Part shown: positions 31,033-63,482 of the stretch, in pieces
How the letters are laid out: every line of letters starts with the position of its first letter
How positions within the stretch are numbered: the first letter of the stretch is position 1
Source of the DNA: Rhizaria sp. SCN 62-66
Lineage: Eukaryota
NCBI GenBank assembly: GCA_001724265.1
Contig: MEDY01000107.1
Coordinates: 1-64,000 of the forward strand
Direction: 5' to 3'
Length of the DNA stretch: 64,000 nucleotides
The notes under the pieces: model-generated
Databases searched by the model: none
Seen by the model: only the letters and a program-made list of their open reading frames with translations
Told to the model about the DNA's origin: nothing
Made by a program: the position numbers and the translations under genes

Positions 31033-34000
31033 ATGGACGAGGATTTCGAGCTTGACCAAGCTCTCCAAGACTTGGTCGATGTTAACATCGCCGATGACAT
31101 CTCCGCGCGTTCATAGGCCCTGCCCCATTTGCGCTCGGCTGCCCGCACCCGGCTAAGCGACACAGCGGATGCGCTGTTTGATGACTCTTCGTCTGCCCCT
31201 TCCTCGGCCCGTGACGGTCTCTCCTCCACTAACGCTTATGCCACCTACCCAGCCGCCGCCAGTGCTGCGCTACGGGACCAACACGACGCCCTCGTACAGT
31301 CTTACGCGTCATCCGCCTGGAACGACACCGGTGACTTGCATATCGCTTTTGCCGGAGCCCCTGCGCTTCAGTTCGCGTCCGCTGCTCCGGCATACAACGC
31401 AGCGCCCCATGTCCCGATCTCTGCAGTTACTGCGACCGCAACTGACAAGCGCGCTGCGCTCATTGCCAGCGCGAGCGCGGCGCTCGGCCGGCCCGCGGCA
31501 ACCTTTGGGCCGCTGCTGCCCCCCGCAGCTACCGGCTATGCCCACAATCACGGCAACGCACAAGGGCCGCAGCAGCAGCAGCTTACAAGCTCCAGCTCTC
31601 AAGCTGTGTCGCAAAAGCAACCACAACAACAGCAGACTGCTGCCACGGTGAGCAGCTACAGTGTACCACGCGAAGCACACACAGTCGCATCTGCTTTACG
31701 CGGCGCTGCACCACCCCGCGCCCAATCGCGACAGCAACAGCTACAGCTACAACAACAACAGCAGCAGCAGAAACACGCACTGCCCTCTCGTGGCCCGACG
31801 ACAGCTGCGTCGCACACTTCGAACCCTCTGGGCAAGCGCTCTACCGCGCTGAGCACTGGCACCGGCGGCTCTGCTGCCGCGCGCGCTGCTGAGACCGAAG
31901 CACAGCTCTCCGCCGCGGCCGCCGACGCCGCCGCGGCGCACGCGCGCGCACAGGCCCTCGAAGGCGAACTCGCTGCTCTGCGCGCTGCCGTCGCGGGCGC
32001 GGGCGAACGGCACGCACACGGGCTGGCGGGCGAGCGCGCACGCGCCGCCGCTGCCGAAGCCGCCGTCGCCGCAGCTGTGGCCGCCGCAGACACGCGCGCC
32101 GCCACCGCCGTCGCCGCCGCGGACGCGCGCGCGCACGCCGCGCACTTGGCCGCCGCAGCCGCCGAGGACACCGCGCAGCAGCTGCGGCAGACCGCCGCGC
32201 GCGCCGCCGCCGAGGCCGCGGACAAGCTCGCCGCCGCGCTGGCGCGGTCTGACACGGCGGAGCGGCGCGTGGCCGCGCTGAGTGCTGAGGCCGCCGCAGT
32301 CAAGACCGCTGCGCGCGCCGCTGCGGCCGCTACGGAGGAGGCGCTCGACGCCAGCCGGGCGGACTTCTACGCCCAAGCGCGCGCCGCCAAAGACGCGTGG
32401 GCACGCGAGCGAGCGGAAATGCAATCGTTGCTGTCCGCCGCGGCCGCCGCGAGAGAGGCCGCCGCGGCGCGCGAGAGCGGGCTCGCCGCGCGCGCTCTGG
32501 CCGCTGAGGCCGCACTCGCGCGGATCGAGGCGCTACTCACTGCGGAGACGGACCGCGTGGCGGACCGCGACGCCGCGCTGTTGCGGATGACTGAAGCGCA
32601 GCGCGCACTCGGCGACGACCTGGCGGCGGCGCGCGCGGCCGCGGCGGAGGCCGAGGCGCGGCGCGCAGCGCGCGAACGCGAGCTCTGTGCGCGCGCTTTG
32701 GCTCTGGAGACTGCGCTGGAGCAGGCGAACCGCCGCGCCGACGCTGCTGTCGCGGTTGCTGAGGCTGCGGCCACCGCGGTTGAGGTCGAGCGGGAACGCG
32801 CAGCCAAGAGCGCGCTCGTCAGTGCAAGTGCGAATGGCTGTGTGGAGGAGGAGGACGCACTGGCGACCGCTCTCAACCCCAAGCGCACGCCCACGGTTGC
32901 TGCGGCAGTCACGGGTGTCATGGGTACCGCGGGTACGGACGCCGCGCAGTGGGGCGGCTGGACTCCGCATAACCGTTTTGCACTCAGTGGCACCGACGGC
33001 GCGTGCCGCTGCCCCGCTGCAGTCGCTGCTGCCGCTGCTGCTACAGCGCCTTCTATTCCCACAAGGCCTACACCAGAGACTGTATCAGTTGCAGTGCAGA
33101 CCGCCCCGTCCCTGGCTGACCCCTCCGTCGGCGCCGCTGAGGCCGACGGCGCCGAGCCCTCGCAAGAGCAGCTCATGACCGAGCTGTGCCGCGCCGCCGA
33201 AGTCTCAGCCGCCGCGCTCGCCGCCGCGCGCGCCGCCGCCGCCGCCGCGGACCTGCGCGCGCGCGACCTCACGGCCGCGCTTTCTGCCGCCGAGGCCCGC
33301 GCCACCGCCGCCGTCGCCGCCGCGGCCGCCGAGGCCGACGAGCGGGTGCGTGCCCTGCAGACCGAACTCGACGCCACTGCCGCGGCCGCCGCGGAGCACC
33401 GCGCGCTGGCCGACGCGCGCACAGGGAACATCCAGCGGCGCTTTACCGCGGCCCTCGCCGTCGCTAGCGCGCGCGTGGGCAGTCCGTACGACGCCGCGCT
33501 TGCGCCTGGGGCCGTGGCGGCCGCGGCGGGTGCGGGGGTTGCACTGACGGGCCGCGCGGGCGACGACGTGTGCACGCTGCTCGTGATGCTGTCGGAGCAG
33601 GAGGCCGCGGCGACTGTGAGCGCCGCTCGGGCGGACCGCGCGGTGGCCGCGGAACAAGCGCTGCGGGCGCGGGTGCAGGAGCTGCGCGCTTTGCTCACCG
33701 CTGCCGCTGCGGCAAAGGGAAGTCAAGCTGCATGCTGCAAGTGCACTGCGGCGGCAGGCAGCCACTCTACTGGCGCGAAGGACCCCGTGTCGGCAGCGGT
33801 CGCTACGACTGAGCTGGAGGTCACCGGCGGCGCGGGTCGCAGTGACGAAGCACTGCTGCTGCGCGCGCAGTTGGTCACGTTATCGACGCGCGTGATGGCC
33901 GCCGACGCGCGAACGGCCGCCGCGAGCGACGAAGCCGCAGACAGCCGCGCCCGCGCCGCTGATTCCGCGACGACCGCAGCCGCCGCCACGGAGCGCGCCA

Positions 34001-61500: not shown

Positions 61501-63482
61501 CGCGCGCGCCTGCCGCGCTGCCGCACGACAGCGCCGACAACAGCAGTTTCAACTCAGTCACGGACCCGACTGCCGCGACAGTCGCCGACGTGGCGACCGC
61601 GGCCGCTGGCACGACGCAGCGCGCTGTGCTGTACAGTTTTACGGCTGCAGCGCTGCCCGCCGCGCTGGGCGTTGCCGACACGGCCGTGGTGCCGTCTCAG
61701 GCGTCCGTGGGCTGGACCGCGCCCGCCAAGGCGCACGAATCCCTGCGCGAGCGCATCGCCGCCGACCTAGCCACCGCGGCGCAGGCCGAGGGCTGGAAGG
61801 TCGCCGGCGACCGGCTGGTGTACCGCGGCTCAGCGCTGGCGCTATCCTTTGCACGCACGCGCGGGCTCGCTCTGGCGGCCGCTGCGGCGGGTCGCCAGGT
61901 CCCCGCGACGGCGGTCGACCCCACCTCCGCGCTGGCCGCCGCGATGACTGCGCCCGGCTCCGCGCTGGCGAGCTACGCCCCGCGCGGCGCCGCTGGCACC
62001 GAGTCCGCTCTGCCGCTGCCCGCCGGTGCAGCGCAGCGCGCGGCCGTTGGCGGATACCAGCGGCGGCGCGAGGCGCGCGTGGCGTTTGTGTTTGCCGAGC
62101 TCTTCTCCGCGCTGCTGCGGTCGGCGCTGTGGGCGCGCTGGTGGGGCGACGAGGCCTCGCGCCGCGCCGCCGCCACTGGGCTCGGCCGCGACCTCCACGC
62201 GATGCTCAACTCCCGCGCGTCCGCTGTGCTGCGTCTGTCAACCGCGGAGACGAACGCTGCGACCGCGGGCGCGCTGCGGCGTTGGCTGCGCGCTCACGGG
62301 CTGCCGTTGGGCTCCGCGGCGGCGGCGCTGCGGTTGGTGCAGGCCCGCGGCGGCAGCGCGCTGGACGTCTTCTGCGCCGCGACCAACACCGCGCCCCCCG
62401 GGCTCTGGGAGCCTTCCGCGGCGCCCGCGCGCTGGGGCGACCCGTGGCACGAGGCCGAGTGCGTGCCGCGCGCTGCCGCGGCCGCGACGGCGGGCGCCAC
62501 GACGGTCTGGTGCGAGTGTCCGCCGCTGCGTCTACCTCTGGCCGTGCGCGGCGGCGTCGCAGTGCCGCCCGCGCCGACTGTCGCGGCTGCCACCGAGGCT
62601 GCCGCGGCGCCGTACTATCTGCGCGTGCCCGCAGGGCTGGCCGCGCCGTCTCTGTCGGCCGCAGCGCCGCCGACGACGGGCACGATCGGCGGCGGCAGTG
62701 CGCTGCTCGACGTTTCACTCGACGGCGCTCTCGCGGCCGCGCCAGTGATTGCTGGTGCCGGCGCGACGTTATCGACGGCGGCATCGGGCGTGGAGGCGCC
62801 TAATGGCAATGCGCTGCGCTACCTGCTGCCGTGCCCGCGCCCGCCCAACTGCGCTCACAACGGCGGGCTCGTTCAAGACAGTAACGGCTCCGACAGCCAC
62901 CACGCGATCGCTAACATCGGCAACGACAGCGGCGACGCGAGCGCTCTGCGCCTTGCCGTGCCGCTTCCGCCCGCGCCCCCCGCGGTTGCTGGCGCCGCCG
63001 CGGCGCTGCTGCCCGTGGTCACGCAGCGCGGCGCGCCCCGCATCTGGCACCGGCTGTGGTCGCGCGCCACCGCAGTCCGCTCGCAGGCTCTGCATGGACC
63101 GCGCGCGGCGGCGCTGGCGGCGCAGCTCACACAGCTGCTGCTCACCGGCGACTGCGGCTGCGCGGGCTGCGGATACGCTCCCGCTGAGAGTGGCGCTGAC
63201 AGCGAGTTTGACGTGCGTGAGCGCGTGCTGGCTCTGCTGGGGTGCTTCCCTGCGCTGGGCGGGGGACTCACGCCTCTGCTCGCGCTCGCTCTGCACCCAC
63301 AGGCGCTGCCTCACGTCGCGAAGCTTGCTGCGGTTGTTACCACGCAGGTCGAGGGACGGGTTGTGCTGCGTGCGGCCAATTTGGCTGTCAAGCGCGCGAT
63401 GTCGGCCGCGATGATGCGCAATGACGGCTGCACCCTGCTCTCGGCCGAAGAGACAAACACGGTTTACGCGGCGCTTCTGTAA
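58551..63482 (+). CDS. AFI1: AFI1/MesA-like DENN-related protein (Afi1 N-terminal and SPA domains), ~1,643 aa, with one in-frame TAG (61155)
   Basis: Motifs VLAEFDVDAG, LADQMLPDGTHARVSDWSV, LVHTRKDPAARRGAVCRALA, RTYPYTSL and [27 protein letters not shown]. A C-terminal GGLTPLLALALHP motif lies downstream of the TAG. ORFs 58452-61157 and 61170-63482 share a frame. Stop is TAA. Confidence 0.85.

Follow-up and report, generated by a model that had tools for sequence, protein, structure and literature searches.

We propose that UAG is very probably read as a sense codon, with UAA and UGA as the only stops, in the organism represented by positions 1 to 64,000 of contig MEDY01000107.1 (GenBank assembly GCA_001724265.1, Rhizaria sp. 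SCN 62-66). This whole stretch of 64,000 nucleotides is called the window below. A first-pass annotation had put forward the same code from the letters of the window, and our analysis bears it out because homologues of one TAG-containing gene, gene C (55333-57867), span its TAGs, because in-frame stop codons within the gene C family are TAG 26 times, TAA once, and TGA never, and because TAG closes none of 39 clear gene ends. We go further only tentatively: that UAG alone means glutamate, with UAA and UGA both kept as stops, in a eukaryotic lineage known only from metagenomes is a proposal to which we give somewhat less than an even chance.

The annotation had listed seven in-frame TAGs that split four genes, at 31114, 36709, 40325, 55816, 56821, 57100, and 61155, and all seven are found at these positions. 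When TAG is read as sense, the pieces fuse into four long open reading frames (ORFs), 30970-37845, 38270-46615, 55327-57867, and 58452-63482, and there are no frameshifts in the four genes concerned. The further claim that each frame stays coding-like beyond its TAG also holds: codon-usage scores rank the same frame best on both sides of each of the seven, and local G+C content around them is 0.50-0.71, with no AT-rich island such as those seen in the intron and spacers. An eighth TAG, at 31000, lies in AT-rich noncoding sequence upstream of the ATG at 31033.

All four genes are on the plus strand and end in TAA. Gene A (31033-37845) encodes a long, alanine-rich coiled-coil protein that matches no Pfam family. 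Its first TAG (31114-31116) is codon 28, with the same frame best on both sides; its second (36709-36711), 377 codons before the terminal TAA, is the least secure of the seven, as the downstream score of frame +1 comes near that of frame 0. Gene B (38162-46615) consists of a signal-peptide exon (38162-38216), an intron, and a 2781-codon exon that encodes repeated units followed by a hydrophobic tail at the C terminus. The intron (38217-38270, plus strand) is a 54-nucleotide, AT-rich, GT-AG intron in phase 1, and unless it is accepted, the giant exon has no start codon for 397 codons. The single TAG of gene B (40325-40327) falls inside a repeat unit, and the repeat aligns on both sides of it (E 1e-9); frame scores there are near zero, yet frame 0 is still best. 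Gene D, an Afi1/SPA-domain protein, runs from its first ATG at 58551 to 63482 in a frame open from 58452, and its TAG (61155-61157) is flanked by same-frame coding scores of 28.6 upstream and 46.9 downstream, with an ATG five codons downstream of the TAG.

Could these TAGs be ordinary stops between adjacent genes, or lie inside short in-frame introns? In principle, 36709 and 61155, the latter with its nearby ATG, could each split two ORFs, and the organism does have short introns. On that last point, the annotation's remark on introns stands in part: no window TAG falls within an intron, but GT-AG introns such as 38217-38270 do occur. However, homologues and the internal repeat of gene B align straight across TAGs, no TAG sits in an AT-rich island, and the intergenic spacers elsewhere in the window are all AT-rich and at least about 200 nucleotides long. 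We put the chance of such an explanation close to nil.

The firmest evidence comes from gene C, which has three in-frame TAGs and belongs to a large family seen only in metagenomes. A word-based homologue search with gene C returned no relative, and an exhaustive profile search returned 97 in the protein library; the ten that we looked up all come from metagenome assemblies only. Homologues of 700-860 amino acids align unbroken across all three TAGs, and gene C itself is in the library in four fragments, of which three stop right in front of a TAG (residues 163, 498, and 591). Numbering from the translation start at 55327, and with residues in one-letter code, the TAG at 55816-55818 is residue 164 and stands in a mixed polar column (column 211; Q 4, E 3, K 3, L 2, I 1, and R 1 in 14 of 16 homologues). 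The TAG at 56821-56823 is residue 499 and stands in a conserved glutamate/aspartate column (E 11, D 2, A 2, and K 1 in 16 homologues; profile emission 0.37 for E and 0.34 for D). The TAG at 57100-57102 is residue 592, in a variable stretch; it recurs in metagenome contig L001, whose sequence matches window positions 56966-60483 at 100% identity. Conservation in the family is seen in a C-terminal half that contains Cys, and there is no match to a Pfam family apart from a weak, sub-threshold one to pPIWI_RE_Y. The family's G+C content at third codon positions (GC3) is 0.49-0.77, below that of neighbouring genes. No relative was found in the prokaryote genomes and viral contigs scanned for the family.

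Scanning JGI metagenome contigs with a 9-row alignment of the gene C family yielded 33 loci, all in one metagenome: L001, which is the window copy, and 32 paralogues (107 kb in all, including L001). The genes flanking these loci are GC3-rich, as in the window, and a Pfam search of them gave no additional TAG inside a known domain. We built a profile of 777 positions from 28 long library homologues and aligned to it the three forward frames of the loci and of gene C with stops masked. The 15,132 profile-aligned family codons include 30 TAG, 3 TAA, and 3 TGA. Five of the six TAA and TGA codons lie at profile positions 754-772 and are real gene ends; the sixth, a TAA in L008, is at position 559. 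Once the last 25 codons had been trimmed off in each case where the alignment reached the gene end, 14,357 codons remained, with 26 in-frame TAG, 1 TAA (that of L008), and no TGA. The other two frames of the trimmed set hold 74 and 81 TAG, 79 and 168 TAA, and 295 and 517 TGA. A profile-alignment codon tally of this kind had been recommended with the annotation, and, run on the gene C family, it agrees with the proposed code.

Is this excess of TAG more than chance? In the gene C family, the codons one step from a stop predict nonsense codons that are 48.5% TAG, 26.8% TAA, and 24.6% TGA, and the probability that at least 26 of 27 in-frame stops would be TAG is 1e-7. In the window, where CAG, GAG, AAG, TCG, and TGG are common and their A-ending partners rare, TAG would result from about 65% of one-step nonsense mutations, and seven of seven has a p of about 0.05. 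Thus, the annotation's argument that random nonsense should also produce TAA and TGA is strong for the family and considerably weaker for the window alone, since under GC-rich codon usage random nonsense mutations most often yield TAG. Its statement that exons contain no in-frame TAA or TGA is correct: the ten other genes of the window (16,253 codons) have four in-frame TAG and none of either.

The gene ends point the same way. The 13 ends in the annotation are TAA or TGA, never TAG, exactly as it gave them, with the qualification that the ORF ending at 54646 is only 107 amino acids long and is a doubtful gene. Adding a TGA at 6730, the window has 14 ends: 10 TAA, 4 TGA, and no TAG. At the conserved C terminus of the gene C family, 18 rows have TGA as their first stop, 8 (including gene C) have TAA, and 4 have TAG, while two rows run off the contig. 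Homology continues beyond the TAG in three of those four. In L012, the TAG is followed by the last four residues of the family C-terminal motif and then by a TGA at the homologous place. In L020, the frame stays open for 160 codons, into a ubiquitin-like domain. L033 has its TAG within a domain with a 75-residue alignment to ubiquitin (E about 1e-30 per domain), opposite a ubiquitin alanine between two lysines, where the paralogue L020 has glutamine. The fourth, L026, is a frame-shifted copy. Over the clear ends of the window and loci together, TAG accounts for 0 of 39 and TAA for 17 (10 in the window, 7 in the loci), and the absence of TAG has a p of 0.016 to 1e-5 for assumed TAG shares of 10-25%. 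Conserved genes ending in TAG, which the annotation had named as evidence that would overturn the code, were thus absent among these 39.

Two side observations concern these ends. L020 (452-958) and L033 (151-810) extend beyond the usual family C terminus, where one or more ubiquitin-like domains follow; as estimated from the alignment, identity to ubiquitin is about 75%. L033 then continues into a coiled-coil tail. Also, the preferred stop differs, the window using mostly TAA (10 TAA, 4 TGA) and the family copies of the loci mostly TGA (18 TGA, 7 TAA).

The sequence context of the TAGs is not that of programmed stop-codon readthrough. As the annotation had noted, the 3' contexts of the seven window TAGs differ, and over 34 sites the base 3' of TAG is C in 12, G in 9, T in 9, and A in 4. 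That is, we find no common downstream context or motif, and the sites are spread over many genes. The base 5' of an in-frame TAG is A or T at 24 of the 34 sites (p 0.0007 against 42% expected); third positions, about 58% G+C, are the baseline for this base.

What, then, would be inserted at UAG? We approached the residue in two ways. The first, a Codetta-like method, sums the log of profile emission over background at sites with a posterior of at least 0.8; as a control, it returned the right residue for 60 of 61 sense codons, the miss being AGA (14 sites). For TAG (16 sites), glutamate scored 7.9 nats, lysine 4.6, and glutamine 3.8, or 0.49, 0.29, and 0.24 per site, with leucine at -0.91 and tryptophan at -1.00 per site, and the top residue was glutamate in 79% of bootstrap draws, lysine in 12%, and glutamine in 7%. 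The second method takes the likelihood on a fixed family tree (106 rows, LG+G4) with the TAG cells swapped for each residue in turn. Over 25 sites, and with glutamate set to 0 log units, alanine stands at -1.9, lysine at -2.8, glutamine at -8.3, serine at -8.8, leucine at -23, and tryptophan at -90, and the probability of glutamate is 0.82. Its controls comprised 11 codons with eight draws of 25 sites for each, after masking of every row that matched the focal row at 95% identity or more. The true residue came first in 87 of the 88 draws, and its lead over the runner-up had medians of 21-54 log units. Glutamate is therefore the best single candidate, a little short of even odds overall, and if a single residue is assumed, it is likely to be the one. 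Alanine, lysine, and glutamine are possible alternatives; leucine and tryptophan, the latter the worst fit, we reject.

The poor fit of tryptophan bears on the possibility that the TAGs never reach the ribosome, either because the mRNA loses UAG through editing to UGG or CAG or because they are errors of assembly or base calling. Sexual-stage A-to-I editing does convert UAG to UGG in some fungi. Here, however, tryptophan fits worst of all, and there is no common sequence motif around the TAGs. As for errors, the TAG at 57100 is identical in the contig of a second assembly, 27 further TAGs occur in other contigs, and three DNA sequencing runs from two studies, labelled as bioreactor or wastewater metagenomes, contain 98-100% of the sampled words of 55300-63500. 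We find either version very hard to credit.

Site by site, the picture is more diffuse. TAG columns are as conserved as those of GAG, CAG, and AAG (mean relative entropy 0.45 versus 0.41-0.46), and the best residue at the 25 sites is A at 6, E at 5, Q and K at 3 each, S, L, and R at 2 each, and Y and M at 1 each; at 16 of the 25, this residue has codons one step from TAG. Leucine, tyrosine, or tryptophan is best at 3 of 25 sites, compared with 43% of precursor codons (p 0.0009). TAG sites thus avoid columns of these three residues, and therefore we consider the inserted residue to be under selection. In our reading, many different neighbouring codons give rise to TAG, which is then retained at positions that tolerate a polar residue, and its retention at such sites argues for translation and against null alleles. 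A TAG that L013 and L027 appeared to share in the same profile column was discarded as an alignment artefact in a repetitive stretch, where the TAG of L013 pairs with GAA in L027.

A number of observations weigh against a reassigned UAG, or against its meaning glutamate. That the 32 paralogous loci come from the window organism is something we infer only from the shared metagenome, gene family, and composition. Three of the 32 (L022, L026, and L027) change frame; in L008, homology flanks the internal TAA (codon 153 of frame 0); and L030, with three TAGs within 22 codons in conserved columns favouring K, L, and K, looks like a decaying copy. Given the frame changes and the internal TAA, some members of the gene C family may be pseudogenes. 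Moreover, there is no TAG in about 10,000 codons of the high-GC3 genes of the window, nor in about 5,750 codons of the genes that flank the loci. The well-conserved TAG columns are mixed, with E in three, K in two, and L, S, A, R, and Q in one each. The margin of glutamate over alanine for TAG is only 1.9 log units, whereas control codons gave 21-54, and when the five suspect loci are left out (18 TAG sites remain in kept columns), alanine and glutamate tie. The residue-specific signal of TAG is far weaker than that of any control codon.

Do these observations imply that the TAGs arose by nonsense mutation in pseudogenes or in decaying family copies, with an excess of TAG from GC-rich usage or mutation bias? 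The damaged-looking copies (L008, L022, L026, L027, and L030) would be expected on this account, the residues under TAG are mostly one-step neighbours of TAG, and the seven TAGs of the window taken alone are only marginally surprising by chance. Against it stand the family tally, in which all but one of the in-frame stops are TAG where about half were expected; the intact frames of the four window genes, even though gene C has three TAGs; the TAGs of genes A, B, and D, which look single copy; the avoidance of leucine, tyrosine, and tryptophan columns; and the lack of any TAG among the clear ends. In addition, the inferred ancestral codons require many different base changes, and hence no single mutation bias explains the TAGs. 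We regard pseudogenes as a highly improbable explanation of the whole; the five suspect loci themselves are likely decaying copies, or contain unrecognised introns or assembly errors.

A more serious contender, which we consider unlikely but worth carrying forward, is that UAG does not terminate and yet has no single residue. Either the release factor would have lost UAG, leaving it to near-cognate tRNAs (those for glutamine, lysine, glutamate, tyrosine, etc.), or decoding would be inefficient, and TAG would then survive only at tolerant sites and in weakly expressed genes. This idea accounts for a residue signal far below every control, for conserved columns that mix E, K, Q, S, and L, and for the one-step neighbours of TAG (Q, E, K, L, S, and Y) that make up 16 of the 25 best residues, with E, Q, K, and S roughly in the proportions of the neighbouring codons. 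It would also suit the roughly tenfold rarity of TAG in high-GC3 genes: about 0.18% of codons in the low-GC3 gene C family versus about 0.02% in the other window genes. On the other hand, glutamate comes first by two methods, the mixture could equally be explained by young TAG codons that arose through non-synonymous mutation, and we know of no nuclear code with a fully reassigned UAG but without a cognate tRNA.

In the model that we favour, UAG would be no terminator, and ribosomes would insert an amino acid there, supplied by a tRNA with anticodon CUA or by efficient near-cognate decoding, while the release factor eRF1 would have lost its recognition of UAG. The rarity of TAG would fit a codon that is young or weakly decoded and that strongly codon-biased genes avoid. 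If UAG is indeed glutamate, the weak and mixed signal would reflect a young reassignment still spreading via non-synonymous mutations. No tRNA genes of any kind were found in the 64-kb window or in the 107 kb of the 33 related loci.

What organism is this? The sequence is best explained as nuclear DNA from an uncultured eukaryote, GC-rich and poor in introns, that occurs in bioreactor and wastewater metagenomes. The window has a G+C content of 63%; its long ORFs are very GC-rich and are set apart by AT-rich or T-rich spacers, and its genes switch strand frequently. Pfam matches identify eukaryotic genes for a DHHC palmitoyltransferase, a protein kinase, an ELMO-domain protein, a COPI-associated protein, an AP-3 delta adaptin, and the Afi1/SPA-domain protein, besides a weak calpain match described below. 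Two RNA-type runs contain 12-23% of the sampled words of 55300-63500, with a fraction of 0.12 for a poly(A) metatranscriptome.

Other features of the window may be mentioned briefly. A single ORF of 4250 codons, about 3970 of them from its first ATG on (7191-19094), has no in-frame TAG and shows only a weak, short calpain-like match at residues 3201-3227. On the minus strand, the ORF pieces 29702-30256 and 29159-29527 resemble two exons of one gene (29159-30256) with an intron of about 170 nucleotides between them, probably a second intron in the window. GC3 differs sharply between adjoining genes: 0.47 in gene B, 0.61 in gene C, and 0.70-0.87 in most others.

The AP-3 delta gene (49501-54024) offers a view of the lineage. 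Its protein is 55-63% identical to metagenome proteins and to EukProt entries labelled Ploeotia vitrea and Paulinella micropora, and 46-49% identical to those of oomycetes, ochrophytes, an apusomonad, an ancyromonad, an amoebozoan, and animals. In a tree from a quick maximum-likelihood search, the window falls in a clade of 12 rows (97 in the Shimodaira-Hasegawa-like approximate likelihood ratio test) that holds only metagenome sequences and the two EukProt entries and that stands apart from stramenopiles and Amorphea. The clade is rhizarian if the Paulinella entry is that organism's own gene. That the window organism represents a new lineage, as the annotation had entertained, is thus plausible: the only sequences with which its AP-3 delta groups are from metagenomes, apart from two entries of protist data sets. 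The protein is 20.6% alanine, and its sister in the quick tree is a long-branch sequence, P0011, rich in asparagine and isoleucine and very different in composition. A stramenopile origin, which the best named AP-3 delta matches had prompted us to consider, is unsupported by this tree, and a trypanosomatid origin, prompted by the T-rich spacers, is contradicted by the frequent strand switches, the GT-AG introns, and the placement of AP-3 delta.

Reassignments of UAG alone are of interest since they break the usual coupling of UAA and UAG, and, by the papers cited below, they are known from few lineages, namely a single rhizarian, a single fornicate, and some phyllopharyngean ciliates. If our reading is true, the window organism would be an independent case in a GC-rich non-ciliate and would provide data on release-factor specificity and the evolution of suppressor tRNAs. 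The case would be most valuable if the codon is still rare and has left only a weak imprint on proteins, as expected early in codon capture. In practical terms, gene callers using the standard code cut this organism's proteins at every TAG, and gene content is therefore mis-annotated in metagenome catalogues, as the four fragments of gene C illustrate. A literature search, supplementary tables aside, returned no report of the window organism or of a code in which UAG alone is glutamate.

How does this case compare with known codes? The closest in architecture is the rhizarian exLh (Sainouroidea), in which UAG is leucine and UAA and UGA are stops; its description gives 384 in-frame UAG codons in 71 genes, gene ends of 56 UAA and 15 UGA, UAG rarest in highly expressed genes, and one residue at 95% of hyperconserved UAG positions (PMC5304391). 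As in exLh, UAG alone is changed here, in-frame stops are essentially all UAG, genes end only in UAA or UGA, and TAG is rarest in one class of genes, here those of high GC3. Unlike in exLh, leucine is rejected, the conserved columns are mixed, and UAG is much rarer. UAG is glutamine, with UAA kept as a stop, in Iotanema spirale, whose UAG codons are scarce, as they are here (PMC5304391), and in the ciliates Hartmannula sinica and Trochilia petrani (PMC11687900). The change of UAG alone with UAA still a stop is common to these three and the window organism; the difference is that glutamine here lies 8.3 log units below glutamate and tops 7% of bootstraps. The window organism is moreover GC-rich with long ORFs, unlike ciliate-type or fornicate-type genomes. 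Among phyllopharyngean ciliates, UAG is described as leucine or glutamine with UAA the preferred stop, and in uncultivated members from TARA Oceans, it is leucine and suppressor tRNAs were found (PMC11687900). These ciliates likewise show a UAG-only change in metagenome-derived eukaryotic genomes, but leucine is rejected here.

Codes that involve more than UAG are more distant. One oligohymenophorean ciliate is described as assigning different amino acids to UAA and UAG (PMC10553269). Measured against that description, the window organism differs in that UAA is a stop (17 of 39 ends, 1 in frame in 14,357 codons). The ciliate reportedly reads UAA as lysine and UAG as glutamate, and the meaning of UAG is possibly the same in both. 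In Blastocrithidia nonstop, UAR is glutamate and UGA is tryptophan (PMC12153298). A stop codon that is possibly glutamate is a likeness to that code, and the difference is that UAA and UAG have not changed together here. UAA and UAG are both read as glutamate in the peritrich code (NCBI table 30) as well. The joint reassignment of UAA and UAG in tables 6, 29, and 30 and in Blastocrithidia does not match one in-frame TAA versus 26 TAG, and the ambiguous stop/sense code of Condylostoma and the karyorelicts does not match a TAG that is found at no gene end. In total, the case shares the architecture of the known UAG-only codes and differs from them in its lineage, in the rarity of the codon, and in its probable residue.

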